64,000 bases of DNA from a virus. The DNA lies in the IMG/VR virus record IMGVR_UViG_3300045988_133395; one strand, 5' to 3'. Numbering within the stretch: position 1 is the stretch's first letter; each line of letters begins with the position of its first letter. The position numbers were made by a program, and so were the translations under genes. This document shows, in pieces, positions 9,501 through 31,395 of this stretch. The notes below the pieces were generated by a model, which was given only the letters and a program-made list of their open reading frames with translations, was not told the DNA's origin and made no database searches.

Positions 9501-10605
9501 TGCTGCACACATGGGTTCAGTTGATTCAACTTTATCTTATAGAACTGGTTGGGGAACAGATAAAAGAGTATGGAGAACTTTTATTGATTCTGGTAATATT
9601 GGAAAACAATCTGTAAATTATGCTGCAAGCGCAGGAAATGCAGATACCGTAGATGGATATCATGCAGCTGATTTATTTTCTGGCGGATATAAAACAACAC
9701 TGGATTTATCTGCTTTAAATAATAATCTTTATTATCCTGTTACAGGAGCATCTATACCTGCCAATGGTTATCATAAAATTAAAGTTTCTGTACACCTTAA
9801 TTCTGGTACAAAACCATCTTGGGCTACGCATAACTCTGGTTTTACAACTAATGTAGAATTATATACTACTGCTTCTGGATGGGGCACAACACATGGTGAG
9901 ACTATTATTTTGAATGATAGTTATAATTTTACAAATTGTGGACAAGTTGTAGGTTTTACTCAAAATGGAAATACCAGTACGCCAGTTTTATGGTTAAGAG
10001 GTGGAGGAAAATATTTTGTAGAATGTGATTATCAGGCATCATGGACAATTAGAACTTCATTGTATTATACACAAGGAAGTTCCAGTGATACTTATCACCA
10101 GACTGTTGAACCTCAATCATCATATCCAGGATTTAAAGCTGGAGATGGTGGAGCTATTAATGGTGTTATTAGAGCTGGTCAAGTTTATGGGGCAGTATGG
10201 AATGACTATGCAGAATATCGTAAAACTAAAGAATATATTCAACCAGGTTATTGTGTCATTGAAACAGGAAAAGGAGATTTAATTAAATCTTCTGAAAGAT
10301 TACAGCCAGGAGCAAACATAGTATCTGATACTTTTGGATTTGCGATTGGTGAAACTGAACAAACTAAAACTCCACTTGCGGTCTCAGGTAGGGTATTAGC
10401 TTATCCTTATGAAGATAGAGATTTATATCAAGCTGGTGATCCAGTTTGTTCTGGACCTAATGGAACTATTTCAAAAATGACTCGTGAAGAAGTCAGAGAA
10501 TATCCAGAACGAATTATTGGTACAGTATCAGAGATTCCAAATTATGAAGTTTGGGGAACTGGTAATGTAAAAGTAAATAATCGTATTTGGATTAAAGTTA
10601 AATAG
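3505..10605 (+). CDS. giant tail fibre / tail spike protein (2366 aa)
   Basis: TTG start with AGGAGG RBS; Gly/Asn/Ser/Thr-rich beta-helix-like repeats (YVGGNSYFSN, YVNGSSYFSS, YVGGGESYYTN), duplicated motif N(A/S)DTVD(G/N)YHA(A/S)(D/S)(L/F)F, distinct C-terminal domain; size and composition typical of phage fibres. Confidence 0.75.
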   Translation: MANYVKFKQGLKKDFNTTNQPLTNGMIYFVIDENNNGSIYYDTIVDGKQATKNGAVHRVKFSGLPIKITGSVTGTGVISQDGETIEINTSTNHSHGLAHQDFTVTLSNDDTNLKWTRLGNQNGEGFWLKSIKGNVKAPAWFQPNYGTGIAFGGGSTKGIISVKYNEPSIRFAGGNGDAPVWYFTITGSNDKSYDLNRIGGHSSDSAKLDHNITFKIASTADATNGANGTKTDLSGPAVNLYLPTKISGFDLLQASRFQGNADSATYATSAGYAKGLFLNPETRQEDMNFNLADAKYIKKVTYSMATSTTKKNKPPIGDANILSFGWDNSGYGSQLAIQNSGAGHLAVRGSGSTNGASSWGEWSTVLDSSNYTSYINNYYWANVKVSTASSTETKPTFNTAYTSNWWRSTGKTGWWNDTYSGGIAMEDKTYVKVAGNKSFFIPNGSLKIGGNGDIFFATGYDDATLKIYGQTNTDFGAETIVIQTCFDNRDPQTSEYTTQYANRCNLLLQPRGGQVYIGKNLTTPGDVGYKLLVGGNQWIEGNLVFKGAKEIKFIGSKQTYSMIRFIDNTSDNYGNGISIGGGGSTVIGAGESAMSYVTNGGDERLFLLSDGAINIEAGGDTISNRKGLQVTSDGHILPIKAENSNPNAQDLGSAADYWRNLYINNITLQSQVGNRLVWTNGSKILQAGYHYADTDRIAINTAGRQGYNFYVNGSSYFSSNTYIHRNYFLNNPSTGAGELILTALGYKSAGYPVYNDPEFASGSNSISVYNNAANGTVTHAIVSDASSGNSSGKVLKITHTGSGSPGFGGFVQYISSRANAIFIQIFRAKIPTGRNVATASNSMGDNYKDEWLTPTTGTGRWEWYARRVICGASGTFSTGGHVYIKDGVAPTASSPLVWYLSYCNVIDVTKGNYDGLRTRYSDFVIYDSGENGKDNKTPINDKYVAKIVTKTSNGTTFTLRGLNGAGNELADAVLTIPNAGSGKAGLITDAAQTIYGEKTLTSNLRFANVTTGTRGIVGTIADNDYWRVVGCADKTNEGYLEIATGDDANEPIYMRQYSGVFKTVKRTFTILDGSGRSRAPELFEAKKVHVNSKLNQSTAIADISYQFQVTGTSNFTDTVNISGVTNHHNNIQIDANYSIARPGKNSAWYGSHNNAMIRMTSVNDWSPLLAQKATNGYWILGHYNYHNEKDENDKNSDFRDQWLFGYLANSNLEGTTGASNSLTTTYRLLNIGGNDNQRMFVSAKYNAVVGSETQPVYVQSNGNVATCSYSLSATIEAGTANRMAYYKAANQIGSSGHYVTSSQVGINSNTTHDFTFYVGGNSYFSNLVTVYAGNNLGVKIGNTNITAIDGSLIFQNNTALRFGSSEWDWNKWAGLKYIPDSKTIVMGLADSTNFVANAVQSGGTFLFTGMSSIDLNKTASIKNLAIGGGIYWNPYVESAGDGSDAASITVIAHGAADGTELRIQQQNDANDIINLVVNNSIFLNGKRAFRPYDGWLRINEDSSFGYGIYTGSSLVRSDNQLQVGDSGNKFYANSAGDGYFSNALGIAGTNTNYRLYVDGKTWLRDALYIGSDTNGKNKNYIAFYGTYGDGEGYFNHTYIGENVFSTSGESSELVLFKGNDQGSNDTVESITGSGPDRIRHIAAGHLFQVYRTAMSGSFSDVCASTAPSTVLEVNGGGLSIHGQKITFTTTNSSGSSINSIGSVVRIYGNTYGNDANYLISKTAGVFSYGDGGPQIRFGTNYAGNQQEGALIYTDHNSAGAGVSWHFVSNQSDWSVNSKRYVARTSVTIGSLLPNTSYALYVGGGESYYTNHINMQQNASILFPQVNQFLRWTSSTSNNNSTGRTWYGIGTYQAGDSYNWLNISNYWGINITTKDDTHLQHNGKVLTNSGNATGTVGSSTKPVYSNQGVLTPITSYEGNAATATNATNAKNSDTVDNYHASSFFIQDRLEPTSTAGNDGLWGLTGNRSFHGALPEGLSNIYPYGQLISFSTNNAARFQIYAAHMGSVDSTLSYRTGWGTDKRVWRTFIDSGNIGKQSVNYAASAGNADTVDGYHAADLFSGGYKTTLDLSALNNNLYYPVTGASIPANGYHKIKVSVHLNSGTKPSWATHNSGFTTNVELYTTASGWGTTHGETIILNDSYNFTNCGQVVGFTQNGNTSTPVLWLRGGGKYFVECDYQASWTIRTSLYYTQGSSSDTYHQTVEPQSSYPGFKAGDGGAINGVIRAGQVYGAVWNDYAEYRKTKEYIQPGYCVIETGKGDLIKSSERLQPGANIVSDTFGFAIGETEQTKTPLAVSGRVLAYPYEDRDLYQAGDPVCSGPNGTISKMTREEVREYPERIIGTVSEIPNYEVWGTGNVKVNNRIWIKVK

Positions 10606-11912: not shown

Positions 11913-12173
11913 ATGTTCAATAACGCAACAAATGGCTATAGTTTAGCCGACATTGCCGCAGCTACTGGAGCCAATAGAAATGATAATGGATTTGGATTCG
12001 GTGGAGATGGAGGAGCCTGGTGGATTATAATTTTATTCCTTTTCTGTTTCGCAGGATGGGGAGGAAATGGAAATGGACTCTTCGGAGGAGGTTCTACAGG
12101 TTCTGGAATTACAGACGGTTATATTTTAACCTCAGATTTCGCTAACATTGAAAGAAAAATGTGGACTCTGTGA
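11913..12173 (+). CDS. hypothetical Gly-rich membrane protein
   Basis: 86-aa ORF, GAAGGA RBS; WWIIILFLFCFAGWGG hydrophobic core flanked by Gly-rich segments. Confidence 0.4.
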   Translation: MFNNATNGYSLADIAAATGANRNDNGFGFGGDGGAWWIIILFLFCFAGWGGNGNGLFGGGSTGSGITDGYILTSDFANIERKMWTL

Positions 12174-12669
12174 TGGCTTTTATGCCATGAACACAGGTAT
12201 GTTGAATGGATTTGCTGGTATTAATAATAATATTACTCAGCAAACAGTCGCAGACATGCAAAATACTAATACCATTAATGCAGGTATTACCAGTTTAGGA
12301 ACTCAGTTGCAACAGTGTTGCTGCCAAAACAGATATGAGGACGCTCAAAACTTTGCTCAATTAAATTATAATTTAGCAGACCAAGAGTGCTCAACTCGTA
12401 GAACAGTTTCTGATGCAACCAGAGACCTAATGGAAAATCAAAACGCTAATACCAGAAGCGTTTTAGGTGCTATCCAAGAGATGCAAACACAAGCTTTACA
12501 TGATAAGATTAGTGAATTAACTGCCGCAAATTCTAATCTTAGATTACAAGCAAGTCAAGCAGCTCAAAATAGCTATTTAATTAATGCTTTAAATCCAACA
12601 CCTATCCCTGCATATACAGTTGCTAATCCATATTCTGGATATCATAACTGCGGATGTGGTACACTTTAA
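12148..12669 (+). CDS. hypothetical coiled-coil protein (true start possibly ATG ~12187)
   Basis: 173-aa ORF beginning with TTG overlapping previous gene by 26 nt in +1 frame. Confidence 0.4.
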   Translation: MKEKCGLCDGFYAMNTGMLNGFAGINNNITQQTVADMQNTNTINAGITSLGTQLQQCCCQNRYEDAQNFAQLNYNLADQECSTRRTVSDATRDLMENQNANTRSVLGAIQEMQTQALHDKISELTAANSNLRLQASQAAQNSYLINALNPTPIPAYTVANPYSGYHNCGCGTL

Positions 12670-13164: not shown

Positions 13165-13677
13165 ATGATGAAAAGACTTTGCGAAATGAAAAATTGTTTA
13201 ATTAGTGCGGCCCAATCTCAAATGTCTAATCTTCAGAATTGTGACGCTGAAGAATTAGGCGAAGTTATTGATATGATTAAGGATATTGAACAAGCTATTT
13301 ATTATTGTACAATCACTAAAGCTATGAAAGAAAAATCTGACGATGAAGAACCTCAGAGAATGTACTATAAAGAAAGTATTCGTAAGAAAAAACGTAATGT
13401 ACCTATGGACTATTATGATAGATACGAAGATGAAGATGAAAGAGAATATCCAATTAAAATATACGACAGTCGTGAAGGTAAAAGCCCTGAGCGCAGACGT
13501 ATGTATATGGAATCCAAAGAGCTTCATCATGACCAAGCTAAAAAATTAAAAGAACTTGAAGAATATATGCAAGAACTTAATGCAGATATTCTCGAAATGA
13601 TTGAGGGTGCAAGCCAAGAGGAAAAACAGTTACTTCAAAAGAAAATTGCTTTATTAGCAACTAAAATAAATGTTTAA
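13165..13677 (+). CDS. hypothetical highly charged protein
   Basis: 170-aa ORF, Lys/Glu/Asp-rich, start overlapping previous stop. Confidence 0.45.
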   Translation: MMKRLCEMKNCLISAAQSQMSNLQNCDAEELGEVIDMIKDIEQAIYYCTITKAMKEKSDDEEPQRMYYKESIRKKKRNVPMDYYDRYEDEDEREYPIKIYDSREGKSPERRRMYMESKELHHDQAKKLKELEEYMQELNADILEMIEGASQEEKQLLQKKIALLATKINV

Positions 13678-13990
13678 AATTAATGGGGATAATTGGCGAG
13701 TCGTCTTTGTATCCCCATATCACCCAATGCTTAAAAAGAAAGATGGCTCTTATACTCTTGGAGCTTGCGTTGATGATACAAAGAAAATTTATATTAATAA
13801 TAAACTTTCTCTCGAAAAAGTTAAACAAGTTTTATGCCATGAAATAACACACGCCGCAATGTTTAGTTATGATATTCAATTAACCTATGACCAAGAGGAG
13901 CTATTAGCCGATTTACTCGCTACTTATGGACAAGAGATAATTGATATAACTAATAAGATTTTTTCTAAGATAAAAAATAATAGGGGATAG
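13670..13990 (+). CDS. small HExxH zinc-metallopeptidase-like protein (SprT/zincin-like)
   Basis: 106-aa ORF containing VLCHEITHAAMF (HExxH followed by AA, SprT-like signature). Confidence 0.4.
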   Translation: MFKINGDNWRVVFVSPYHPMLKKKDGSYTLGACVDDTKKIYINNKLSLEKVKQVLCHEITHAAMFSYDIQLTYDQEELLADLLATYGQEIIDITNKIFSKIKNNRG

Positions 13991-14018
13991 AATTTAATTC
14001 TATCCCCTCTTTTTTATT
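13980..14018. terminator. bidirectional rho-independent terminator between convergent modules
   Basis: aggggatagaatt|taattctatcccct palindrome with T-runs on both strands; separates + structural block from - block. Confidence 0.65.
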
Positions 14019-14598
14019 CTTCTTTTGGACGTTGGTCTTCTGCAAATCCAGCTTCGACTTTCTTTTTTACTAATGAAAATAAATGGTCGCCTTTATGATT
14101 ACCACCTAACCCATTATAAGCCATATGGTCTTTATCTAATTCTTCCCATTCATCAAGAGTAATAACATGATCTTCAGCTAAAAGTTTTCTACAATTATTT
14201 CTAAATTCTTTTCCTTGCATTGATAAAACGCCTGCGGTCAAAGCTGTAATATTTTTTTCTAATGCTGAAATTTCTTTTTCAAGAACCGCATCATCAGATT
14301 TAGATTCTTCCCGACCCGCTTCTAAAGCTTGATCAACCTTGGTATTAATTTCATCATACTTATCTTCAGAATTTTGATTCATCTTATCATGTTCTTTTTC
14401 TAAAGATTTTAATACCTGTTGATTTTCACTTTGAATTTTTTTAAGCACATTATCAAAGTATTCTTTTTGTTCTCTTTGACGTTCTTCTTTTTCAAGTCTT
14501 AAATAACGTTTTATGATAAAACCGCCGCCAGTTACAATTAAACCTAAAATAAGCTCAACCCAATACTTTAAGACAATTGATCCAATTGTTTCCAGCAT
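14014..14598 (-). CDS. membrane-anchored coiled-coil protein
   Basis: 194-aa ORF; N-terminal TM helix ILGLIVTGGGFII then Glu/Lys-rich heptad region. Confidence 0.5.
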   Translation of the reverse strand: MLETIGSIVLKYWVELILGLIVTGGGFIIKRYLRLEKEERQREQKEYFDNVLKKIQSENQQVLKSLEKEHDKMNQNSEDKYDEINTKVDQALEAGREESKSDDAVLEKEISALEKNITALTAGVLSMQGKEFRNNCRKLLAEDHVITLDEWEELDKDHMAYNGLGGNHKGDHLFSLVKKKVEAGFAEDQRPKEE

Positions 14599-14668
14599 AG
14601 TTAAAAACCCTCCTCATTTTTCAAACTTTCTCTCTACAAATTTTAAAAAATAAGAAGGGGTTATTCTA

Positions 14669-15685
14669 TTAGAATGGCCAACTCATAGTACATTCATTTG
14701 CATATACTCCATTATCAGCTTCTAATGAAGCATCAGTTCTTTTTACCATGTCCAAATAAAATTGAGAATTTGGATTGTTAAAGAATATTCCTGGTACGTA
14801 TGAAGATTTACTTACAATAACTGGAATATATTCTGGTTTAAATAAATAATATAAATAATTAGAAAAAATATCCGCGCTCGGCAATGTTCTTCCTTCAAAT
14901 TTAAAATATTTATATCCCATACTATTATACTTTTGGATATCTTCCCAGGTTAAGTTATTCTGTTTTCCAAGAGTATCAGGGTCATTAATACCACCTTGAA
15001 TTTGACATTTTGTAGTAATACTATATTTATGTTTACCATATGTCAAATTAGTTTTACTTGTATCGAGATAATGTAATTTTCTAACAGGACAATGGCTATG
15101 ACAAATTGCATTTGATAAAAACTCACATTTACCTCGTAACTCTTGAGGAATATTTTCAAGCATATCCATATCTTTATTTAAGTTATAGTCCAAACAAACT
15201 TGATAATAGTCTGGATTTTGGAGTTCTTTAAGAAAGTTTTCTTTGTTTAAACATTTAGTTGTAGAACTAATATATTTAAAGTCTGGATAATTTTCTCTTA
15301 AATACTGTTCCAAAAGAGGAGAATTTACAACAACCTCATTATTGCCATCTTCAAGTAATCTCATTTGAAGATTACAGAATGGGTCATATATATCTTCTTC
15401 CTCAATTGCGGAATTGGTAAAAATTAATCTCATAGGAATATTATAGAACTTATAAAAATCTCTAATTTTTTCAATTTCTTCCTTTGTGACCTGGCGATAA
15501 AATGGAAAGTTTCTGCCGCCGTCCCAAGTACAAAATGGAAAGTTGCCAAAGAAGGTTCCAATTTTAATTCCATCTCTAAAGTATTCAGGATTTGTGTCAC
15601 GCAATTCCAAAATAAATTTATTTAAAGTAAAGTGTTCGTAAAATCCGGATAAATTATAATAAATCATTTTTAAGCCCTCTCTCAA
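14669..15685 (-). CDS. Cys-rich protein of unknown function, paralog of next gene (rSAM-locus accessory protein)
   Basis: 338-aa ORF; GNFPFCTWDGG and CEFLSNAICHSHC clusters; shares GNFP...C..GG segment with 15654..16445; translationally coupled. Confidence 0.5.
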   Translation of the reverse strand: MREGLKMIYYNLSGFYEHFTLNKFILELRDTNPEYFRDGIKIGTFFGNFPFCTWDGGRNFPFYRQVTKEEIEKIRDFYKFYNIPMRLIFTNSAIEEEDIYDPFCNLQMRLLEDGNNEVVVNSPLLEQYLRENYPDFKYISSTTKCLNKENFLKELQNPDYYQVCLDYNLNKDMDMLENIPQELRGKCEFLSNAICHSHCPVRKLHYLDTSKTNLTYGKHKYSITTKCQIQGGINDPDTLGKQNNLTWEDIQKYNSMGYKYFKFEGRTLPSADIFSNYLYYLFKPEYIPVIVSKSSYVPGIFFNNPNSQFYLDMVKRTDASLEADNGVYANECTMSWPF

Positions 15686-16445
15686 ATAAATTAATCATCA
15701 ATGTATAGCTTTCATTTGAATCTTCTGGAATAATGTCATCAAACATAACATATGAGAAATCTTTTGGAATACTTCTATACTCTTCAAAGAATTCATCATC
15801 GTCTTTATAAAATCTTTTAGCACAATTTCTAAAAGTAGAATGACCACTATATTCAAGTATATAATGAGATTCTTCAGATAAACAATCGCAATAATTTACA
15901 CAATCTCTACATTTTGTAAAACTCATTAAGTAAATCTTTTGTACACCTTTTACTTTTAAATGAGCGTAACGTCTTGGTAGGATTATATATTTGATATTTT
16001 TACAATTATCAATCTTATCTTGAATCTCTTTTAAATTATATCTCAATAAAGCATTTTGATGCAATGCAATTTGAATATTAGGATAACGTTTTACTACATA
16101 ATCAATCAAGTTAAAATCTGCAATCTCATAGTATGCAGAATTATTATTTTCCCATTCTTCAAATAATATCTTATCAAAACGATTTAGATATTCTTTCTCA
16201 TTAAGGAAGAGGTTGCCGCAGTCAACAAATAACATCTTAGATGGTATTGAATAACTATTTACACAACCTATAATATCATCATACAGTGCAAAATATCTGG
16301 TGTCTAAGGCATTAATCCCACCGCACATAATGTTAGATGGGAAATTGCCCTCGATACCTTTGATTTTTACTGTATTGCTATACATATCTAAAATATTAAC
16401 ATTATCTTCAAAATTATAATAAATAGATGGCAATATAAAAATCAT
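15654..16445 (-). CDS. Cys-rich protein of unknown function (rSAM-locus accessory protein)
   Basis: 263-aa ORF; EGNFPSNIMCGG and CRDCVNYCDC cluster; 32-nt overlap with downstream gene. Confidence 0.5.
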   Translation of the reverse strand: MIFILPSIYYNFEDNVNILDMYSNTVKIKGIEGNFPSNIMCGGINALDTRYFALYDDIIGCVNSYSIPSKMLFVDCGNLFLNEKEYLNRFDKILFEEWENNNSAYYEIADFNLIDYVVKRYPNIQIALHQNALLRYNLKEIQDKIDNCKNIKYIILPRRYAHLKVKGVQKIYLMSFTKCRDCVNYCDCLSEESHYILEYSGHSTFRNCAKRFYKDDDEFFEEYRSIPKDFSYVMFDDIIPEDSNESYTLMINLFERGLKNDLL

Positions 16446-16477
16446 TTACTATACTCCTTTTACTCTTTACTTCTTTA

Positions 16478-17152
16478 TTATTTTACATAAAGAAGGTCTA
16501 CCTTACTCTCAATATTTTTTTCTATATCTAATATTTCATTGTCTGTTGGATATTCTTGAATACTATAAAACAAATGATAAATACTATATTGGAATCTATC
16601 CCATTCTGCGGCTGTTAAGAACTTTTTATAATCAACTACAGAATTTCCAATGCAAATTCCATATAAAACATTATCTTGGAACAAACTGAAATCATCAAAA
16701 TAAGTTGCATTTAAAAGATAAATATACTTATTCATATTAGATAAAACATCATCTTTATAATCTGTATATCTTAGTTCTGGAGCATATTCTTTTAATAGGA
16801 CTAAAAACAACTTATTCAAGCACATTTCTTCAATCGTATTTTCATCTTCATCAAAGAAGCCTTCAACAGTAGTATTTTTAATTCGCTTTATTAAATCATT
16901 ATTAGACAAAATAATAAAGTTTTTTATATGAGTAAAATGCTCTCTTTCTTTATCATCAAGCATAAAATAATAGATATAATAAACTTTTAATCTGACTGAC
17001 TCAAGTACATCATCCGCAGTATTAAGTTTACCAAGTCTGAAATCTAACTCATCTATTAATACAAATTGTTTCTTAAACATAATATCTTGAGTTAAATCAA
17101 AAATAGAAACTTCATCAGTCATACAAGTATCTGTTGATAATATCTCTTGCAT
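16478..17152 (-). CDS. hypothetical protein in rSAM operon
   Basis: 224-aa ORF overlapping start of upstream rSAM gene by 38 nt. Confidence 0.45.
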   Translation of the reverse strand: MQEILSTDTCMTDEVSIFDLTQDIMFKKQFVLIDELDFRLGKLNTADDVLESVRLKVYYIYYFMLDDKEREHFTHIKNFIILSNNDLIKRIKNTTVEGFFDEDENTIEEMCLNKLFLVLLKEYAPELRYTDYKDDVLSNMNKYIYLLNATYFDDFSLFQDNVLYGICIGNSVVDYKKFLTAAEWDRFQYSIYHLFYSIQEYPTDNEILDIEKNIESKVDLLYVK

Positions 17153-18509
17153 ATTTTATAAACTCCCTTCTTTCTTTTGGAATTTTCAAATCATTTAGAA
17201 TAATATCATAAACGCCATATTTTTCAGCTATATCATTAACAGTACGATATTTAGTTTTAAACATTTCACATACTTCATCAATAGCACAGAAAAGTTCTTT
17301 TCTATCTTCATATTGCGCTCCTAAACAACCTTTCATACAGAAGCTTTTAATAGGACAGCCTGCACATTTCATAAAAGAACGATTTTGATTAAGAGTCTTA
17401 ATTTTATATGCAAGCATAGGATTTTCTCCACGAACTCCAATAATCTTAGTTTTATTTTCATTTAATTCAAGAAAACCATAAACTTTATCAGGATAACAAG
17501 TTCTATGACAAGGTACAACTGCTAAGTCTCCGACTCTAAAAATTGAACCGCCTTGAATTGAACATGGCAACTTATGTTGAATTTCTGGAAGAGCTAAAGT
17601 ATATGGCTGTACATGATTATATCTTCCAATATTCATCATTCCATCAGAAAAGTTATCTGCCATATGATATGCAAAATCTGTTAAATCTCCATTATGAAGC
17701 GTATTTAAGTCTTTCTCTGCCACATAAAAAAGGAAATCTCTATAATCCTTTAAAGATTCTTCATCCCACTGTTCCGCATTTCTGACCTCTAACATCATTG
17801 GAATTGAATATACTTCACATCCATTTTCCTTCTTAAAGATAACATTATATTTAATAATATTATCAATCCACCAATCATAATTACGTTTATAATTCTTTAC
17901 AAATTCTCTTGTAATCATAGGGTGGCAAGAAAGAGAATACTTTGCAATAAATTTGAAAAACTTATCATAAAATTCGTCTTGCTTTGTTTGACCGTTTCTA
18001 AGTCCTCTTTCAACAGATTCTAACTCTGTTGGTCCATCTACTGAAGCACTTAACCAAAAGCCATTGAAATGTTTTACATCATCTCTGACTCTATTCATCC
18101 AATATTCAACTCTTGCGGTCTTTTCATCATCCATAAGGAAAGACATATTTGTAGGAATAACAAAATCTCTTCTTGGGATATTAGGAGTATTCATTTGATG
18201 CTCGTAAAAAACATTTAGAATTTCTTCCCAATAAGGGATTTGAAAAAACTCACCTGAAAAAATATCAAAAGTTGTATATTTATAATGATTTTCATCAAGC
18301 CAGTCTAATAACAATGCTAAATTTCTAAGAATATTTTCCTTCTTATTGGCTTCTGGAGGATACATTTCATCGCCATGTCTATATAAATAACAATATTCAC
18401 ATTTTTGATTACATATAGATGTAATAATAAATTCAACAGAATTTTCATCTTTATCATATCGTAGTAAATAATTTTTTAAAAGTAAATCTTGCTGTTCTTG
18501 AAATGTCAT
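17115..18509 (-). CDS. radical SAM/SPASM-domain enzyme (anSME-like), paralog 2
   Basis: CNQKCEYC (CX3CX2C) at N-terminus, IFSGEFF (GGE-type SAM motif), SASVDGPTELESVERG (anSME-like), C-terminal Cys clusters CSIQGG...PCHRTC and CAGCPIKSFCMKGC (SPASM). Confidence 0.8.
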   Translation of the reverse strand: MTFQEQQDLLLKNYLLRYDKDENSVEFIITSICNQKCEYCYLYRHGDEMYPPEANKKENILRNLALLLDWLDENHYKYTTFDIFSGEFFQIPYWEEILNVFYEHQMNTPNIPRRDFVIPTNMSFLMDDEKTARVEYWMNRVRDDVKHFNGFWLSASVDGPTELESVERGLRNGQTKQDEFYDKFFKFIAKYSLSCHPMITREFVKNYKRNYDWWIDNIIKYNVIFKKENGCEVYSIPMMLEVRNAEQWDEESLKDYRDFLFYVAEKDLNTLHNGDLTDFAYHMADNFSDGMMNIGRYNHVQPYTLALPEIQHKLPCSIQGGSIFRVGDLAVVPCHRTCYPDKVYGFLELNENKTKIIGVRGENPMLAYKIKTLNQNRSFMKCAGCPIKSFCMKGCLGAQYEDRKELFCAIDEVCEMFKTKYRTVNDIAEKYGVYDIILNDLKIPKERREFIKYARDIINRYLYD

Positions 18510-19930
18510 ACAATACCTCTTTCCGCCATTATTCTGTCAATTTCTTCTTCAACTACATCCATAGCTCCATTATACCACAATGGAATCTCTAATGGATTTG
18601 ATGTTATCCAAGAGCCAGTAATAATATATGAGTCTTGTAAACAACATGATTTATCAACAAAAATAGCAATCGTTTTATCAATTTTGCTCATATCAGTCCA
18701 TTTCTCATCAATGATACCTGCTTTTGCATATTCATATACAAACTTAACATAATCTGTATAAAAGATTTGATGCGGATATAAGATAAGATTATCGAAAGTC
18801 TTTTTAAGATTTAAGAACTGGTCTTTATCATAAATCCAAGCTGATTCATTATTTGTTTGAACGTATTTTGCGGCAAGTCCATTCATATCAGCATGGTCTT
18901 TCATATTATTATGATAATCTACATAATCATCAAACATGCCTCTATGACACATAGTATATTTTCCATCATGAATAGGAACTACTACATGGGAAAATGAACC
19001 GCACCCTCCGCCGCAGAATGGCTTTGAACAATCTAAGCATTTTTTCTTATTAAATGAATTATCATCTCGTAATCTGCCTAATAAGAACTCTACACTTGGA
19101 ATATATGTTTCATAATTTGGAATCCATCCATCTAATTGTTTGATTTTTGGAGTCACCTCTTGGATTGAACGATAAATCTTTGCAACTTCAAGTCCATCCT
19201 CTTTTGTCCATTCTGCTGGAGTTGCATAATTGAAAAGACATGGTAAGAAACACCATTTTCGAGTTTTTCTGTTTTTATAAGGCTGATACATTTCTCTATC
19301 AAAAAATTCAAACCATTCATATGCTTTTTCTGGTGTATCTACAAAATGAAATGTAGGTTTTGAAAAAGTTGGTTTAGTATGAACATATAAATCAATTTTA
19401 GAATCATCAAATTCTAATTCACATAAATCTCTAAAATTCTTTAAGAATCTTTGAGTAACGCCTTTACCTCTTCCCAAATCATTCATCTCTTCAGGCCCAT
19501 CAATTGAGACCTGAAGATCAAAATGAAATTTTTGATTACCATGATAATGTTTAATAATTGTATCAAACAATCTCTTTAAAGATTCAACTTGGTTTGGAAG
19601 AGTAAAATTTGTTGAAGTATCTAATTCATTAAAGTTTGGAAAAGCCTCGACATATTCTTCAAAATGGTCTATAAAACGTTCTATATGAAGAAAAGGTTCT
19701 CCGCCCCATAAAGTAATATGCTTAATGTGTTTATCTGCTTCTGGATCAACATCATAGACTTGTTTAATTTGACTTCCATTTTCAAAATCTTTAGCCAAAT
19801 CATCATCTATTTGTTTTAAACATCCAGTAGCATCTTTACAAATATAACAGTACCCGCAATTAAGGTTACATAAAGCAGTAGTAAATAAAGTTATATTTGT
19901 AAAGTAAATCTTTTCATTATTTTCTATCAT
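18506..19930 (-). CDS. radical SAM/SPASM-domain enzyme (anSME-like), paralog 1
   Basis: CNLNCGYC (CX3CX2C), LWGGEPFL, VSIDGPEEMNDLGRG, C-terminal CLDCSKPFCGGGCGSF...CHRG SPASM cysteines; ATGA overlap with next gene. Confidence 0.8.
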   Translation of the reverse strand: MIENNEKIYFTNITLFTTALCNLNCGYCYICKDATGCLKQIDDDLAKDFENGSQIKQVYDVDPEADKHIKHITLWGGEPFLHIERFIDHFEEYVEAFPNFNELDTSTNFTLPNQVESLKRLFDTIIKHYHGNQKFHFDLQVSIDGPEEMNDLGRGKGVTQRFLKNFRDLCELEFDDSKIDLYVHTKPTFSKPTFHFVDTPEKAYEWFEFFDREMYQPYKNRKTRKWCFLPCLFNYATPAEWTKEDGLEVAKIYRSIQEVTPKIKQLDGWIPNYETYIPSVEFLLGRLRDDNSFNKKKCLDCSKPFCGGGCGSFSHVVVPIHDGKYTMCHRGMFDDYVDYHNNMKDHADMNGLAAKYVQTNNESAWIYDKDQFLNLKKTFDNLILYPHQIFYTDYVKFVYEYAKAGIIDEKWTDMSKIDKTIAIFVDKSCCLQDSYIITGSWITSNPLEIPLWYNGAMDVVEEEIDRIMAERGIV

Positions 19931-19961
19931 TAATAACTCCTTTTACTCTTTTAAAATATAT

Positions 19962-21203
19962 TTAAAAATCAACGCCTTCTACGGTATAGCTACTATGAAC
20001 TACAAAGCATCGTTTATCAACATTGCTAAAGTTACCAGTATTAACAGAATTAAAATTACTGCTATTTACACCAGCGAAATTGCTCGGACAAGTATTTACA
20101 CTGGAATCATTTGTACTAAAATTACTTGGACAATTTGAGGTAAAGAAACCTGTATATCCAGTAGCATTTCCAGAATAATTAGAAGCATTATCTCCTACAC
20201 ATTGAGTACCAACACTGGAAAAACGAGAAGAATTATTTCCAGAACAGTTAATTGTATGGCCTGTATAGTTAGTATCATTATTTGCAGTATATCCGCCTTT
20301 ATGGAAAGAACTTCTTTTAGCATTATTAACAGTAGTTCTATTAGTGCTATTTTTTCCATTTCCAGAATATTTAGAAGCATTATGTCCCTGGAAATTACCT
20401 CTTTTAATGGCATTACCTGATAACTGGACATCTTTACTTCCATTACCAGCCCAGTTAAATGTCCAATAGGAGTAATGATGATGATATTTTCCAGTTTGGA
20501 ATCCACTATGATTACCATTATGAACTTTTGAAAATTTAGAACTATTACTTCCAAAAGAATTAAAATCTGCGCCATTATTAGTTGCCCATTTAGTACTAAA
20601 AAATCCACTATTAAAAGTATGATGATGCCCACTTCTAAAAGCGTTATTATAGCCGCTTCTATTAGAAGCATTATTACTACTTCGATTAGATGCAAAATAA
20701 CCATTTCTAAAGCCACCAAAATAACCACTTCTATTAGAATCATGACCAATTTCATTAAAACTGGTATTATTAGAGGTTCTATGTACGCCATTATGTCCAG
20801 ATCTATTAGCACTAAAGCTACCAAAACCACTATAATTAGAACTATTAAAACCTCCACGATGACTTGAAAAATGTTCTCGACAAGCTTGTTCCATCATTCC
20901 AATGCTTTTTTCAATTTGAGCCATGGATTTTTTTCCAATTGCGGGAGTACCTTGATTAACTCCAACAGGAACTAAGATTGAAACACCATTTACGAATGAA
21001 ACAGTATTTTTTGTATCTACAACACTTTTAAAAATCTCATTCATAATTTGAGCGCTGGTGATTCTAACACCACCACCAACGCTTCCTCGATTAGAAATAG
21101 CAGAATATCTACCATTCCAAGTTCTAATAGCATCCAATCTATCATAATAATCCTTAATAGTAGAGGCTTGAATTGGCTGACCTGTATATACTATTCTTGC
21201 CAT
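19962..21203 (-). CDS. Ser/Asn/Gly/Phe-rich low-complexity repeat protein, putative substrate of adjacent rSAM enzymes
   Basis: 413-aa ORF with GAGAGGTGA RBS; ~110-aa ordinary N-terminal domain then ~300 aa of degenerate repeats (SNRSGY, FNSGFF, NRSGH...) with many aromatic-X-Ser/Asn triads and five C-terminal Cys each followed by N/D within 3-4 residues (CSGNN, CVGDN, CPSNF x2). Confidence 0.55.
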   Translation of the reverse strand: MARIVYTGQPIQASTIKDYYDRLDAIRTWNGRYSAISNRGSVGGGVRITSAQIMNEIFKSVVDTKNTVSFVNGVSILVPVGVNQGTPAIGKKSMAQIEKSIGMMEQACREHFSSHRGGFNSSNYSGFGSFSANRSGHNGVHRTSNNTSFNEIGHDSNRSGYFGGFRNGYFASNRSSNNASNRSGYNNAFRSGHHHTFNSGFFSTKWATNNGADFNSFGSNSSKFSKVHNGNHSGFQTGKYHHHYSYWTFNWAGNGSKDVQLSGNAIKRGNFQGHNASKYSGNGKNSTNRTTVNNAKRSSFHKGGYTANNDTNYTGHTINCSGNNSSRFSSVGTQCVGDNASNYSGNATGYTGFFTSNCPSNFSTNDSSVNTCPSNFAGVNSSNFNSVNTGNFSNVDKRCFVVHSSYTVEGVDF

Positions 21204-21217
21204 TCAATCACCTCTCT

Positions 21218-21592
21218 TTAAAGTCTTGGATTTGTTTGAAAAGAAATATCTATATAATATTCTGGTGTTTCAGCGGTTTGGTCATAATCTCCTTTTGCAT
21301 TTGAGATAGATGTATATTTAGTAGTTTCAAAAACAACTTTTTCTCCATCTTTAATAGTTATATTCTTAATAGAATTATCAACTCTAAAATATGGAAGAAA
21401 GTCTACTAAACTGATATTATCAAAAGTATTTATATTTTCACCATTATCTGCGGAAATATAAGTAGTAATATATAAAGCCGCTGTAGTTTCTTTCTTACCA
21501 GAATTATCTGGTAATTCTTTTAACTCTAAGCCTTCTGTAAAGCTTTTAATATGGCATTGTAATTCGCCATTATTTATAATTAAAGTGTACAT
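21218..21592 (-). CDS. hypothetical protein
   Basis: 124-aa ORF ending 14 nt before repeat-protein gene. Confidence 0.45.
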   Translation of the reverse strand: MYTLIINNGELQCHIKSFTEGLELKELPDNSGKKETTAALYITTYISADNGENINTFDNISLVDFLPYFRVDNSIKNITIKDGEKVVFETTKYTSISNAKGDYDQTAETPEYYIDISFQTNPRL

Positions 21593-24312: not shown

Positions 24313-24497
24313 TTAAAAAGCTTGCGGCCGCAGATAGGGCAGTATTTAATATGTCTAATATATTCAAATCCTATTCCGCCATCCCAGTCGTTTGCCATAT
24401 ATAAAGTATCATCTGCATCTAATTCTCTACAATATCTACATTCTTCTGCTTGTTTTAAGTATTCTTCTTTGTCGTGCCAGGTTTTATCTGCGCCCAT
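24300..24497 (-). CDS. small zinc-ribbon protein (possible)
   Basis: 65-aa ORF with CRYC...CPIC; overlaps nrdD 3' end by 43 nt. Confidence 0.3.
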   Translation of the reverse strand: MGADKTWHDKEEYLKQAEECRYCRELDADDTLYMANDWDGGIGFEYIRHIKYCPICGRKLFNWEE

Positions 24498-24973
24498 TCT
24501 CTTTTTCCTCCATGCTTAACACGATGTTCAACTTCATCTTGCTTACCAAGATTAAAAGCAGTTTTATAATTTCCTGTTAAATATCCAGTAACTCTTCTAA
24601 GCTGTTGGATATGAGTGCTTCCACAGATAGGACATCTATCATTAAATTCATCTGTGTATCCGCACTCAAGACATGTGTCGTTTGGTACATTAACTGCAAA
24701 ATATGGAATGTCTTTATCCATAGCATAATTTACAATTTGCTCTAATGCTTCAAGATTATTTTTAATACCAGAATCTAATTCAACATAAGTAATACATCCC
24801 GCAGATGAATAACCAGTTAATTGAGATTCAATATCAATCTTTTCAAATGGAGACATTTCTTTCCAAACTGGAACATGAATTGAATTAGTAAAGAATTCTT
24901 TATCACTTACATTTTCAATTACTCCATATTTTGCTTTAAAGTTTTTTAAAGCTTTATAGCAAAGGTTTTCGGC
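24455..24973 (-). CDS. nrdD: anaerobic ribonucleoside-triphosphate reductase, exon 2 (C-terminal part)
   Basis: AENLCYK at start, Zn site CLECGY...CPICG, glycyl-radical motif RVTGYLTG. Confidence 0.8.
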   Translation of the reverse strand, partial: AENLCYKALKNFKAKYGVIENVSDKEFFTNSIHVPVWKEMSPFEKIDIESQLTGYSSAGCITYVELDSGIKNNLEALEQIVNYAMDKDIPYFAVNVPNDTCLECGYTDEFNDRCPICGSTHIQQLRRVTGYLTGNYKTAFNLGKQDEVEHRVKHGGKREWAQIKPGTTKKNT

Positions 24974-25941
24974 CATTCGAACCCTCGGTTTCCCGATATT
25001 TCAAAAGGGGATTAGACTATATTATCATCTTATTATTCTATTACCAAATAATAAGAGCTCTGTCTTTCGGATATAATATCCTACTCTACTCACTTCTTCA
25101 TTATAAATATTTCTTTTATAACTATGTTTTCGATAGTCGTTAGAGAACAAATCCATTGGTTTTGTATTCAGTCAAGTATCTAAACCAATATCCACAACGA
25201 GGTTTTGTTTTTACATTGTGATTACATTGATTTAATATTGTTGTTTTTGTAACGTGTAATTCTCTTGAAGCTTCTCCTACAGAGCCATACATCTTTAATA
25301 GATTGCCCTGTAAATCAAAACTACAAATATGAATTGATTGATTATCATCCCAGCTTTTATCATTTTTAGCAAGACCATCTTTATAAGCATCTTTAGTATT
25401 TTTTGAATTAGTCCCCCATTCAAGATTAGATACTTCAGGGTTTGCTTTATTATTATCTTTATGCATTACTACTGTATAATTATTTGGATTAGGCAAAAAA
25501 GCTTCTGCAACTAAAATATGCACTCTTCTTTGTCTTTGTCCTTCTGGATAGGTTATATTGGAATATAAATATCCATTATTTTTATTTATAAAATTTGCTT
25601 TGGGATAAAATAAATCATTTCCATAATCTTTATAAATATTACCTTTTGAAGAAATATAATCAGTTTCACTTCCATTAATTAATCGTATTTCTTCATTAAT
25701 TTGACTTCTTTTAATTAATTTATCTGTCATTTTTCTACGTGCCATAAAAAATTCACTCTCCTTCTATATTATATGAATTTTTATTATACACGACTGAAAA
25801 CTTGTGTCCAATGAATTTACCCTACGGGATTAACTTGCCTTATTACAGGTTTAGTCTCTCTTATCATCTTATTACGATTGCCCGTTTAACAGAGTAATTT
25901 TTTCACGCAGTCACCTGCGCGACACCCAATCCGAAAAGTTT
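24974..25941 (-). mobile_element. group I self-splicing intron in nrdD carrying HNH homing endonuclease ORF
   Basis: Exon 1 frame reads YYTP then garbage and stops; exon 2 resumes AENLCYK (conserved NrdD YxTPAExLC); exon 1 ends in U, intron ends in G; structured GC-richer flanks; approximate boundaries. Confidence 0.65.
25140..25745 (-). CDS. HNH homing endonuclease (intron-encoded)
   Basis: VHILVAEAFLPNPNNYTVVMHKDNNKANPEVSNLEWGT HNH motif; own GGAG RBS inside intron. Confidence 0.75.
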   Translation of the reverse strand: MARRKMTDKLIKRSQINEEIRLINGSETDYISSKGNIYKDYGNDLFYPKANFINKNNGYLYSNITYPEGQRQRRVHILVAEAFLPNPNNYTVVMHKDNNKANPEVSNLEWGTNSKNTKDAYKDGLAKNDKSWDDNQSIHICSFDLQGNLLKMYGSVGEASRELHVTKTTILNQCNHNVKTKPRCGYWFRYLTEYKTNGFVL

Positions 25942-27741
25942 AGGTGTGTAGTAAACTCCAAAATTAAGCTTATATTCTTCTTTAAATTCCGCACATCTAT
26001 CTTTAAATAACTGTTCAATTCTTTTAGCCAGTTTCATTCCTTCTGAAGTCGTATGGTCTGTGCCAATAAGAATTTGAAGAGTCTCAGCGAGTCCTAACTG
26101 ACCTACCGCTAAAGTTCCATGTTTTAATGCGCTTCTTATTCCTTCCTCTGGAATATACCCCTTCATTGTGCCATTCTCATACATAAAGGCTGCGGCAGAA
26201 GCATCCTGAGAACAAATCCAATCGAAGCGTTCAATCAACATATCTTTTGCCTGATGAATTTTTTCATCTAAAAGAGTCATGAAATATTCAACTGCAAAAG
26301 CTTCTTTTGCATCTTCGCCAGTTAAAGCATATTGAGACATAAAGTTCTGTTTAGCTTCCATTGCTAATGTAGGTAAAATAATTGTTACAGGACAAATATT
26401 TCCACGTCCATCTTTTAACTGACCGAAACCGTTAATATCGTACCCATTGGCAGTTCTGCATCCCATCGTAGAGAAGTAGGTACGAGGGTCGTTGATGTCA
26501 TATCCTGCGTTTCCAGACCAGTCGACATTAGCATAATTTGGGTACAGTCTTGTGGCGGTTGAACGTAATGCGAGTTTAAATAAATCGTAATTTGGGTCTC
26601 CTTCTTCACGATTGACTCCTTTCATACACTGGAAAATTCCACAAGGAAAAATAGAAGTTTTATGAAGCTTTCCAATACCTTTAATAGATACATTTAATAA
26701 AGCCTCTGTTACTAATCTTCCTTCTGGTAAAGTACATGTACCATAGTTAATAGAAGTAAAAGGTAACTGGTTTCCACTTCGAGATTGTAATGTATTAAGA
26801 TTATGATACATTCCTTCTACAGCTTGATAAGTTTCTTTTATTGTCATATCTACGGCATATTGATAAGCTGCTTCATTTCTAACAAATACATCATCATTAA
26901 TAGAAGCATCAGCTTTAATCCACGCCTCTTTTGCATTAGATAAATCAAAATCTTCATAAGTTCCAGCTAATCCAAGCATCTGACCTTTTTGACAATATTT
27001 AATACCATCTAAGAAATGCTTATAAAAACTTCTACGAACATAAGGAACCATGCTCCAATCTAAGTGAGTAGCAGATACTCCTCCAAACTGCTGTAATGAT
27101 TGTAACTGAAATAATACTGCCAAAAGCTGAAAAGCTGTATTAACAGATTGAGCAGGACGAACATCAGTTTGACGAGTGTTAAAACCATCTCTAAGTAAAT
27201 CATCTATAGGTAATGACAAACAATTATGCATTCCAACAGCATAACTATCTAAATCGTGAATATAAATTTCATTGTTTAAATGATTATCTCTTGACATTTT
27301 AGATACAATATAATCTAAAGCATATTTCTTTGTCATAACTGAGCTTGCTTCGCCCATACGTCCACCAAAAGAATGTTCATCTACATTAGCATTTTGATTT
27401 TGAACGTTGCGGGCTTCCAATTTTTCACTATAAGTTTTAACAAAAACTGCCTCATGCTCTCTCTTTGCTTCTTGTTTATATCTATAACGAATATACGCTC
27501 TTGCAACATCTCTTCTTTCAGATTGCATTAATAAATCTTCTACGCAATCTTGAATAGTTTCTACAGAAATAGTTGTCTTAGAGCGTTTAGCCATTTCTTC
27601 AATTTCAGTAGCAATATCTTCTGAAGTATCTGTCTCATAAAGGATTTTATCTACTTCAATCATTGCTCTATTTACTGCATCAATAATTTTTTCTTTATCA
27701 AATGGGACAATATCACCATTTCGTTTTTGAACTTCTAACAT
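25942..27741 (-). CDS. nrdD: anaerobic ribonucleoside-triphosphate reductase, exon 1 (N-terminal part; ORF in track reads through to 25903)
   Basis: ATP-cone-like N-terminus, class III RNR body; ORF continues 13 codons into intron. Confidence 0.8.
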
Positions 27742-31380: not shown

Positions 31381-31395
31381 TATATACTTTAAAAG

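Follow-up and report, generated by a model that had tools for sequence, protein, structure and literature searches.

We suggest, with moderate confidence, that seven genes (A to G) of a gut phage of approximately 200 kb constitute a RiPP-like protein-maturation cassette with protein B as its substrate, and that the cassette most likely decorates or cross-links this low-complexity protein of the phage itself. The DNA analysed, referred to below as the window, is a stretch of 64,000 nt (IMG/VR record IMGVR_UViG_3300045988_133395). No description of a maturation cassette combining a radical-SAM pair with a U32-type pair was found in the searchable literature. The eight minus-strand ORFs (A to H) of the preliminary description are present with the lengths given there, and the features of the region are as follows:

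A, 21218-21592, minus strand: ORF of 124 aa, fold matching nothing known
B, 19962-21203, minus strand: ORF of 413 aa
B N-domain (aa 1-112), 20868-21203, minus strand: predicted three-helix domain, leader-like or anchoring
B core (aa 113-413), 19962-20867, minus strand: proposed substrate region
C, 18506-19930, minus strand: 474 aa, predicted radical-SAM protein whose C-terminal Cys set is reduced and twitch-like
D, 17115-18509, minus strand: 464 aa, predicted radical-SAM protein with a full SPASM domain
E, 16478-17152, minus strand: 224 aa, acidic helical protein in the slot between D and F
F, 15654-16445, minus strand: 263 aa, predicted U32-like Fe-S protein, paralog of G
G, 14669-15667, minus strand: 332 aa from ATG 15667, predicted divergent U32-family TIM-barrel Fe-S protein
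H, 14014-14598, minus strand: 194 aa, TM and coiled-coil protein
Terminator, 13982-14008, both strands: bidirectional intrinsic terminator, 12-bp stem including 5 GC pairs; T runs on each strand

Gene arrangement and its conservation

The genes are tightly packed, as had been noted, but the overlaps of 4-38 nt claimed throughout occur at three junctions only (C/D, 4 nt; D/E, 38 nt; F/G, 14 or 32 nt depending on the start of G), and elsewhere there are gaps of 14-70 nt. A TTG at 15685 would give a G of 338 aa; the ATG at 15667 is the more likely start. The strong bidirectional terminator was confirmed, and it divides the convergent late block (plus strand) from the replication/cassette block (minus strand).

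The region was compared among 13 diverged phage lineages, represented by phage contigs of 40-235 kb. All 13 have a B-like gene upstream of C and D, which adjoin each other; the B-like gene is their immediate neighbour in 12 lineages and lies four genes upstream in L137, with protein identities of just 24-53%. Chance cannot reasonably account for a gene order that recurs where proteins are only 30-50% identical. The conserved module consists of A, B, C and D, with E, F and G as less constant members; U32-like genes were undetected in 3 of the 13 lineages, which counts against the reading proposed here.

Several related cassettes contain additional genes. YcaO genes are present inside the cassettes of four related lineages (Pfam E 1.7e-30 in L142), where the adjoining B-like cores have a high content of Cys, Ser and Thr. 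Six related lineages carry GT2, GT8 or rSAM-GT2 fusions, further radical-SAM genes have also been added, and NAGPA and aldo-keto reductase genes accompany some phage cassettes. Outside the cassette, no DNA-modification, glycosyltransferase or chorismate-mutase genes were found in the window between 14 and 64 kb. The window phage encodes YorF and YorH, which are SPbeta-type replication genes.

The membrane coiled-coil protein H had been counted as part of the system, a view that we abandon. In L027 an inverted cassette has moved to a place beside the tail-fibre gene whereas H has stayed by RuvC, so that H is not a cassette member. Its homologs in L027-L029 lie beside RuvC on the opposite strand, with A-G located elsewhere. 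H probably shares a transcription unit with the cassette in the window phage; its PHROG matches are weak, one of them being to a 'hol-like' family.

The radical-SAM and U32-type proteins

Judged by motif and profile, C and D belong to the radical SAM superfamily (PF04055). C carries an invariant C21-X3-C25-X2-C28 motif and matches PF04055 above the 29.5-bit cut-off (E 1.1e-7, 32.6 bits), while the corresponding motif of D, C33-X3-C37-X2-C40, is invariant in 5 lineages and the Pfam match (25.7 bits) falls below that cut-off. Their paralogy, proposed earlier, is borne out by BLASTP (E 2e-6) and by their joint placement in phrog_1802.

The SPASM motif comprises seven C-terminal cysteines, CX9-15GX4C ... 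CX2CX5CX3C ... C, which bind two auxiliary clusters. Both enzymes had been described as SPASM proteins, which holds for D but not for C. In D, the seven cysteines of the domain (TIGR04085 / PF13186) are invariant (C316, C334, C382, C385, C391, C395 and C414, i.e. CX17C...CX2CX5CX3C...C), with a weak match to the TIGR04085 model (E 0.004, 17.6 bits versus 27). In C, the C-terminal residues invariant across lineages are only C310, C328 and C430, a twitch-like set, and the further cysteines of the window-phage protein are not conserved.

The NCBIfam models nearest to the two proteins (GggB, PapB, YhhB, AmcB, QhpD and anSME) all describe peptide or protein maturases. The best matches of C are GggB (2e-15), PapB (3e-12) and the twitch radical-SAM model NF033640 (6e-12), all far below their cut-offs; that of D is QhpD-type (1e-6), and a PDB profile search with D gave CteB (5wgg, E 0.005) as the best meaningful match. 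None of the named RiPP maturase equivalogs, SCIFF and GrrM/OscB included, scored above its cut-off (at best 56.7 versus 650 bits, for GggB), and the matches are restricted to the N-terminal radical-SAM core. As C and D lie far below every curated family cut-off, no specific chemistry can be assigned to them from the models. A housekeeping assignment of the QueE or PqqE type, named in the preliminary description as the outcome that would speak against maturation, was not obtained: the sub-cut-off NCBIfam matches are all to peptide maturases, C matches a 'QueE-like' PHROG only weakly (E 1.9e-4), and the window has no Que or Pqq genes.

F and G had been reported as paralogs without a known family. 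Their relationship is invisible in pairwise comparison (E 0.056) and clear between family profiles (hhalign probability 99.5%, E 7e-23). The second part of the statement has to be corrected, as by sequence and fold both are probably divergent U32-family Fe-S proteins, of the family of UbiU/UbiV, TrhP and RlhA, and the U32 TIM-barrel fold (reference structure 5D88) was recovered. G has no match to Pfam PF01136 (IPR001539) at E <=0.1, though 12 of 26 close family members do (best 5.9e-6), and a bacterial relative of G scores 19.2 bits against the 22.4-bit cut-off of the U32 model. Each protein has four invariant cysteines, the candidate [4Fe-4S] ligands: C179-X2-C182-X5-C188-X19-C208 in F, and C164 ... 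C195-X3-C199 ... C227 in G, where C187 and C52 are mostly conserved as well.

This spacing, which counts against the reading proposed here, is unlike the canonical U32 pattern CX6CX15CX3/4C, given for the oxidases as CX6CX15CX3C (PMC11574389), a consensus from which UbiV and UbiU likewise depart (PMC6747719). The U32 proteins characterised so far are hydroxylases with Fe-S clusters, and UbiU and UbiV work as a heterodimer (PMC6747719, PMC11574389, PMC6599085). Family traits include heterodimer formation and prephenate-dependent, O2-independent hydroxylation; what F and G show in this respect is their adjacency and paralogy. The known U32 'oxidases', namely UbiU-UbiV, TrhP (YrrN/YrrO in B. subtilis) and RlhA, act on quinone precursors or RNA pyrimidines and are not known to act on protein (PMC6747719, PMC6599085, PMC5727448, PMC11574389, PMC10990095). 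F and G differ from them in being very divergent, and the cassette lacks the SCP2 partner UbiT.

Protein B and the small proteins A and E

B is a genuine gene on which purifying selection acts solely in its own frame, with a dN/dS of 0.27-0.28 there and of ~1.0 in the other two frames. It is nevertheless the fastest-evolving protein of the cassette (81-96% identity among close relatives), and its two parts differ strongly. Among 13 close relatives, 88 of the 112 residues of the N-domain do not vary, and the domain can be aligned between lineages. A search of 1.84 billion representative proteins yielded 22 homologs, all of them N-termini of B-like proteins. AF2 predicts helices at residues 13-28, 51-67 and 93-113 (pLDDT 60-70). 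No NCBIfam model, those of the NHLP and Nif11 leaders included, matched B at E <=0.1.

The core, predicted to be disordered (AF2, pLDDT <30), is of low complexity (Asn/Ser/Gly/Phe/Thr/His), with five invariant cysteines and a C-terminal [FY]xVEG[ILV]D[FL] motif. Its most constrained residues are Cys (5/5 invariant), Trp (3/3) and Phe (21/27), versus 57% of all core positions, and four of the five cysteines stand in C-x-x-[N/D]. Across lineages the cores are hypervariable, ranging from ~100 to 350 aa and carrying different motifs (NRSG, NYTF..HC, FNSS, SGNGKSSDSTC, NTT/NST, NTCSN), yet they are constantly S/T/N/G-rich and contain Cys. The earlier designation of B as a repeat protein is apt only at the protein level, where B is cryptically repetitive; TRF found no relevant tandem repeats in the DNA.

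The dN/dS is 0.19 for A and 0.12 for E. In L027, L031, L113 and L115 a homolog of A immediately precedes B, and in L139 and L144 small ORFs of similar size, known by position only, occupy the equivalent place. A gave no match in Pfam, NCBIfam, PHROG or PDB, and may be a chaperone or recognition partner. The slot of E is filled in other lineages by a small protein of 99-233 aa whose cross-lineage sequence homology is not demonstrable; E itself has no family or PDB match.

Proposed maturation of B and alternative readings

We favour maturation because the B-like gene and the C-D pair keep their synteny across 13 lineages at such low identity, because B has a precursor-like anatomy (its N-domain is conserved, its core hypervariable), and because it is selected as a gene, with Cys, Trp and Phe most constrained in the core. 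Further grounds are that the cassettes of relatives gain peptide-specific tailoring enzymes (YcaO, glycosyltransferases), that the models nearest to C and D are maturases, that F and G are paralogous, probable U32-family proteins with four invariant cysteines each, and that the window between 14 and 64 kb has no other genes of the modification types searched for. The maturation layout recognised earlier, with the 413-aa protein as substrate, is strengthened by the synteny and by the YcaO and glycosyltransferase genes of relatives; the modification of B, the enzyme responsible, its chemistry and the role of the product are what we infer from them. In a RiPP cluster, a ribosomal precursor composed of a leader for recognition and a core that is modified is encoded beside the modifying enzymes; the anatomy of B and its conserved adjacency to the enzymes agree with this layout, in which the core of B would be the modified part. 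On the other hand, Pfam, NCBIfam and PHROG revealed no RRE (PqqD-like), leader peptidase or exporter in A-H. C and D begin directly with the radical-SAM motif, so that there is no room for an N-terminal RRE. The core of ~300 aa is also far above classical RiPP core size.

Radical-SAM/SPASM RiPP clusters include those of sactipeptides, ranthipeptides (PapB, CteB), streptosactin (GggB) and the three-residue cyclophane 'triceptides'. The cassette resembles them in the putative precursor gene directly upstream of the maturases, the seven-Cys SPASM domain of D, the nearest HMMs, CteB as top meaningful PDB match and the Cys/Asn/aromatic-rich core. It differs in its far lower scores and lack of an RRE, in its two different tandem radical-SAMs, in its ~112-aa leader-like domain and long core, and in being phage-encoded, without peptidase or exporter. 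Proteusins, e.g. polytheonamides, have a large leader, a long Asn/Gly/Thr-rich core and several radical-SAMs plus a hydroxylase acting on one precursor. All these features have candidates here, but the N-domain of B matches neither leader model, the candidate hydroxylase is a U32 Fe-S pair rather than an O2-dependent enzyme, and host and element differ. Maturation on the protein scale is exemplified by QhpD, which acts on QhpC, and by anSME, which acts on sulfatases. As in those systems, a SPASM enzyme is encoded near a full-length protein (here a putative substrate), not a short peptide; unlike them, the cassette has no quinohemoprotein or sulfatase partners, and its scores are far below cut-off. 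Sublancin, a 37-aa S-glycosylated peptide of the SPbeta prophage, has a dedicated exporter and no radical-SAM or U32 enzymes. Common to both would be a RiPP-type pathway on a Firmicutes phage, and the SPbeta-type genes YorF and YorH of the window phage and the GT2 enzymes of some relatives are further parallels, but radical-SAM and U32 enzymes are present here and no sequence relationship was found. The related lineages with YcaO beside Cys/Ser/Thr-rich cores recall YcaO/TOMM pathways, whereas the window cassette lacks YcaO and no E1-like or dehydrogenase partner was identified.

It is possible, though we hold this only tentatively, that B serves mainly as a structural component of the virion, a fibre or decoration of the tail-fibre module, and that the task of the enzymes is to harden or decorate the proteins of the virion instead of making a bioactive product for release. 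Tail-fibre genes with the same chaperone-like motif at their C-terminal end immediately precede the cassette in L027 and L114, in the window the cassette abuts a block with a tail protein and holin, one B-like module (P0146) is fused behind a Laminin_G_3 domain, and in L030 an S74 chaperone-domain gene lies close by, together with LamG genes; the N-domain of B also exceeds typical leaders in size and conservation. However, in the window lineage the cassette stands at the end of the replication-gene strand, and B has no match among PHROG or structural proteins and a core predicted to be disordered. The chemistry would in part be the same as in maturation of B and the role would differ; the tail fibre might be a target too.

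We consider it improbable that a glycan or small molecule is what the enzymes make or remodel, with the U32 pair and the radical-SAM proteins acting on sugars and B merely a carrier or acceptor (e.g. of N-/O-glycans) or unrelated. The hint comes from bacterial relatives of G (35-40% identity, >576 Clostridia genes, without A-E): in approximately one third of 80 loci examined they share an operon with genes for DUF5696 and sugar ABC transporters, and GH10 and GH43 glycoside hydrolase genes lie near some, a neighbourhood that hints at a carbohydrate-linked rather than a protein substrate and so counts against maturation of B. The glycosyltransferase, NAGPA and aldo-keto reductase genes of some phage cassettes agree with this, as does the enrichment of B cores in N-x-S/T sequons (in that of the window phage, 27 observed versus 12.7 +/- 2.9 in shuffles). 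Nevertheless, the window and L027 cassettes lack a glycosyltransferase, as does the rest of the window from 14 to 64 kb, YcaO works on peptide backbones, the HMMs closest to C and D are those of peptide maturases, and that B, C and D are so strictly adjacent speaks for a direct link between the enzymes and the protein.

Very improbable is a cassette that modifies nucleic acid, e.g. one in which pyrimidines of phage DNA or host RNA are first hydroxylated at C5 in the U32 manner and then undergo radical chemistry: U32 enzymes are known to act on rRNA and tRNA pyrimidines (PMC5727448, PMC6599085), the window cassette follows dUTPase and RuvC genes and its B core is basic (24 K+R versus 10 D+E), but the location beside replication genes is not shared by L027 and L114, the charge of B varies between lineages, YcaO and SPASM-type enzymes indicate peptides, and the window has no other base-modification genes between 14 and 64 kb. 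B would then be an unrelated, nucleic-acid-binding low-complexity protein.

If B is indeed matured, its N-domain would serve as a recognition element, or be the part retained as an anchor, and the disordered Asn/Ser/Thr/Gly/aromatic/Cys core would be the portion chemically altered. C and D would abstract hydrogen atoms from core residues and thereby introduce cross-links, of which Cys-centred thioethers or aromatic C-C links are the most plausible, or other radical modifications, e.g. epimerisation. F and G might form a heterodimeric U32-type [4Fe-4S] enzyme for O2-independent oxidation or hydroxylation of B or of a group attached to it, with A and E as small accessory proteins; in relatives, YcaO would add backbone azoline or thioamide chemistry, and glycosyltransferases would contribute as well. 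The resulting protein would carry many modifications and resist proteases; it would be synthesised late in the infection of an anaerobic Clostridia host and then either leave the cell at lysis or be attached to the virion close to the tail fibres.

Gene organization and delimitation of the cassette

The preliminary description proposed a RiPP- or protein-maturation-type operon of seven to eight minus-strand genes at 14014-21592, here named A to H in transcription order. All eight ORFs are present, with the sizes claimed. Tight overlaps, described for the whole block, occur at three junctions; elsewhere neighboring genes are 14-70 nt apart.

C/D junction, minus strand: overlap of 4 nt
D/E junction, minus strand: overlap of 38 nt
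F/G junction, minus strand: overlap of 14 nt from ATG 15667, or of 32 nt from TTG 15685

The bidirectional terminator reported at the end of the block lies at 13982-14008 and has a 12-bp stem. Base composition of the window is uniform (~30% GC), and the GC skew changes sign at ~14 kb, where two convergent gene blocks meet. The plus-strand block comprises genes for a holin, for small conserved proteins and for a giant tail protein of 2366 aa. On the minus strand lies a replication module of SPbeta type, with YorF, YorH, DnaB, a split PolIII alpha, gyrase A and B, NAD-dependent ligase, RecJ, anaerobic ribonucleotide reductase (RNR) and activase, dUTPase and RuvC. Near-identical phages occur in many samples, the longest contig reaching 198 kb. 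A DNA-level search against GenBank phages gave no match for the window, and the tblastn matches were unannotated faecal contigs only.

Several neighboring genes vary among the relatives. The anaerobic RNR gene (NrdD, 24455-27741, minus strand) is interrupted by an HNH endonuclease gene (GIY-YIG in some relatives), and a NUMOD3 homing-endonuclease gene is inserted in the PolIII alpha gene (28789-33881, minus strand); the close relatives L116-L118 and L147 differ in these insertions. The length of the giant tail protein (3505-10605, plus strand) is strongly variable even where the phages are otherwise near-identical (2324 and at least 1746 aa for genes truncated at the end of the locus, and 612 aa, in L116-L118), which suggests a modular, fast-exchanging receptor-binding region adjoining the cassette. 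A conserved late gene at 11913-12669 (plus strand; phrog_16490), whose product has 256-260 aa when intact, a Gly-rich TM segment and a Cys-rich C-terminus, is broken in the window into two ORFs (86 and 173 aa) by a 14-bp deletion at ~12160 that is absent from the intact copies in L117, L118 and L027; the split marks either a pseudogene or an error of assembly. Opposite H, across the terminator, lies a 106-aa ORF (13670-13990, plus strand; phrog_1233) with an HExxH motif and a weak Peptidase_M78 match. It was considered as a possible leader peptidase but is not conserved with the cassette, being absent, or having an HNH gene in its place, in L116.

Genes A to H are collinear in 13 close relatives (91-98% identity). 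The more distant loci L027-L029 keep the order A-B-C-D-E-F-G, with identities to the window proteins of 52% for C, 48% for D and 51% for G. There the cassette is located on the late strand, directly 3' of a 1787-aa tail-fibre gene and ahead of a holin-like gene, while the H homolog remains beside RuvC on the opposite strand. Therefore H, the membrane coiled-coil protein previously counted as a member, falls outside the module.

More lineages were found using G homologs and a D-profile scan of IMG/VR, which brought the total of independent lineages to 13, with contig sizes of 40-235 kb. All of them have C and D side by side, and a B-like gene lies immediately upstream of this pair in 12 (four genes upstream in the remaining lineage, L137). 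U32-like genes are present in 10 of the 13 lineages, glycosyltransferases (GT2, GT8 or an rSAM-GT2 fusion) in six, and YcaO in four. Additions seen in single lineages are NAGPA, a further SPASM protein, a GrcA-like glycyl-radical protein and an aldo-keto reductase that carries a ferredoxin domain. A is conserved beside B in several lineages. For E, a small acidic helical protein encoded between D and F, no homology across lineages could be demonstrated, and its counterparts are positional analogues only. Neither A nor E had a family match in Pfam, NCBIfam or PHROG, or a solved-structure match in the PDB (searched with an A profile and with E).

Three cassette-bearing relatives (L030, L114 and L115) are TAG-recoded, with 27-43 in-frame TAG codons in called genes and no in-frame TAA or TGA; ORF patterns indicate TAG recoding in L135 and L141 as well. 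The window phage uses the standard code. In L114 (10892-13498), the U32 gene is followed by three tandem paralogous ~290-aa genes, lacking Pfam matches, and then by a NAGPA-domain gene. Next to the related cassettes of L113 (17291-17551) and L115 (260-1066) are genes for a stand-alone GrcA-like glycyl-radical domain protein and for a protein with an ALK/LTK-type glycine-rich domain.

Radical-SAM enzymes and U32-like proteins

C and D both carry CX3CX2C, match PF04055 and belong to phrog_1802, and are distant paralogs (BLASTP E 2e-6). D has a complete, invariant 7-Cys SPASM pattern, whereas C has only three invariant C-terminal Cys and also matches a twitch-domain model. Their NCBIfam matches are all peptide or protein maturases (GggB, PapB, YhhB, AmcB, QhpD, anSME, HxsB, SCIFF), spanning the radical-SAM core only and with scores far below the cut-off. 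In the PDB, the C and D profiles gave weak sequence matches only, to CteB, the best meaningful one (E 0.005), and to ChlB. The sub-cut-off scores and the weak CteB match place C and D, at the level of sequence, in clades outside the assigned families, and do not reveal their chemistry.

F and G, described earlier as Cys-rich proteins of no known family, can be related to the U32 family, although direct Pfam, NCBIfam and PHROG scans gave nothing usable for either. The relation emerged from G homologs and from the paralogy of F and G. Two of 360 G homologs have precomputed PF01136 matches, 12 of the 26 members of a diverse G alignment match Peptidase_U32 (best E 5.9e-6), and F is a paralog of G (hhalign probability 99.5%, E 7e-23). 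PDB sequence searches with G and a G profile returned no match. Each of the two proteins has four invariant Cys, whose spacing differs from the canonical CX6CX15CX3/4C; UbiU and UbiV likewise depart from it (PMC6747719). Characterised U32 proteins are [4Fe-4S] enzymes that hydroxylate quinone precursors and RNA pyrimidines independently of O2, and UbiU-UbiV form a heterodimeric pair with prephenate as the oxygen donor (PMC6747719, PMC6599085, PMC5727448, PMC10990095, PMC11574389). By analogy, F and G might together oxidise B, or a group that it carries, without O2, a role that we judge less likely than not.

More than 576 G-family genes, with 35-40% identity, were found in Clostridia genomes, often as tandem pairs and without A-E. 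This G-type subfamily is abundant in Lachnospiraceae and Oscillospiraceae (L033-L112, e.g. L034 2733-12951). In about one third of the 80 bacterial loci examined, the genes share an operon with those for DUF5696, a solute-binding protein and two sugar ABC permeases; GH10 or GH43 genes lie near some loci. These operons look like they encode an uncharacterised anaerobic carbohydrate-linked Fe-S enzyme pair, and, given the neighboring genes, the native substrate class of the subfamily may be carbohydrate-linked.

Protein B, the proposed precursor

Among the 13 close relatives, the length of B is constant, with a dN/dS of 0.27 in its own frame versus ~1.0 in both other frames, which shows that B is a selected gene. 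A hydrophobic 220-aa ORF at 20195-20857, considered as an alternative frame, was ruled out by its dN/dS of ~1. B is the fastest-evolving protein of the cassette (81-96% identity versus 95-99% for C among close relatives). Its residues 1-112, of which 88 are invariant in these relatives, are alignable across lineages and were predicted by AF2, with modest confidence, to form three helices. Residues 113-413 had a pLDDT below 30, and the full-length model (pLDDT 37) was too poor for a fold search.

Direct Pfam, NCBIfam and PHROG scans gave nothing usable for B, and word-indexed searches with its N-domain returned almost only truncated near-identical fragments, so exhaustive phmmer was needed. Among 1.84 billion representative proteins it detected just 22 relatives. 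Twenty of these have a B-type N-domain followed by an unrelated-looking low-complexity core. The exceptions are P0144, a 1069-aa repeat protein that looks spurious, and P0146, in which the B module is fused behind a Laminin_G_3 domain. Many relatives terminate in [FY]xVEG[ILV]D[FL].

The cores of all lineages are composed of S/T/N/G, aromatic residues and Cys, and their motifs are lineage-specific: NRSG(H/Y), NYTFAAHCxNYC, FNSS, SGNGKSSDSTC, NTT/NST runs, NTCSN and YDGSYR. N-x-S/T is enriched relative to shuffled sequences in three lineages (27 versus 12.7 +/- 2.9, with 0 of 2000 shuffles as high; 19 versus 10.7; 11 versus 5.1). In the window lineage, all five Cys (C320, C335, C358, C372 and C399), all three Trp and 21 of 27 Phe of the core are invariant, compared with 57% of all core positions, and four of the five Cys stand in a C-x-x-[N/D] context. 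A link between the presence of YcaO and Cys content was dropped, since translated cores are also Cys-rich without YcaO. As TRF found no tandem repeat at the DNA level, B is better called a low-complexity protein than, as before, a repeat protein. Diversification of the Asn-rich core by a DGR-type mechanism was also considered; no reverse transcriptase was found in the Pfam annotations of window ~5-64 kb, and the variation extends across the whole core.

Function and significance of the cassette

We consider a RiPP-like protein-maturation system the best explanation of the cassette, and a reasonably probable one. It is suggested jointly by the invariant adjacency of B, C and D, by the construction of B from a leader-like domain and a hypervariable core, by the recurrent addition of YcaO and glycosyltransferases to the cassette, and by the resemblance of C and D to peptide maturases. 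The product may be virion-associated, as the cassette is frequently found beside tail-fibre genes and one B relative is a LamG fusion. A role in the synthesis of a glycan or small molecule, or in nucleic acid modification, is less likely, because no glycosyltransferase or base-modification genes were seen in window 14-64 kb, linkage to replication genes is not conserved, and YcaO and SPASM enzymes indicate peptides.

The RiPP-like system proposed here would work like rSAM/SPASM RiPP clusters and resembles the proteusins in outline. In membership tests it fell outside every named family, and it has neither an RRE nor a peptidase nor an exporter. Sublancin of SPbeta is a precedent for phage-borne RiPPs. 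In the searchable literature we found no earlier description of U32 with radical-SAM enzymes in a phage, of U32 proteins, singly or as a pair, in RiPP clusters, of the B precursor family, or of this phage setting. A bolder and rather doubtful possibility is that the cassette represents a new class of phage-encoded, protein-sized RiPP in anaerobic gut Clostridia. Its ~400-aa precursors with a leader-like domain would be processed by a dedicated twin radical-SAM pair and by a U32-type O2-independent oxidase, the first known with a protein substrate, yielding a cross-linked polymer, glycosylated or azoline-bearing in some lineages, that is displayed on the virion or released at lysis.

The module is common: identical copies of C occur on 21 contigs, spread over several samples, and the diverged lineages that carry it number at least 13. 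If B is matured by the cassette enzymes, large gut phages would own elaborate post-translational chemistry that goes beyond borrowed metabolic genes. The substrates of U32 Fe-S 'oxidases' would then include proteins, or groups linked to them, in addition to quinones and RNA, and the cassette would provide a tractable system for studying the mechanism of this family, as well as a new precursor family and two unassigned radical-SAM clades for enzyme discovery. It would also raise the question of what a hyper-modified Asn/Ser/Thr-rich protein brings to a phage in the anoxic, protease-rich and mucin-rich gut.
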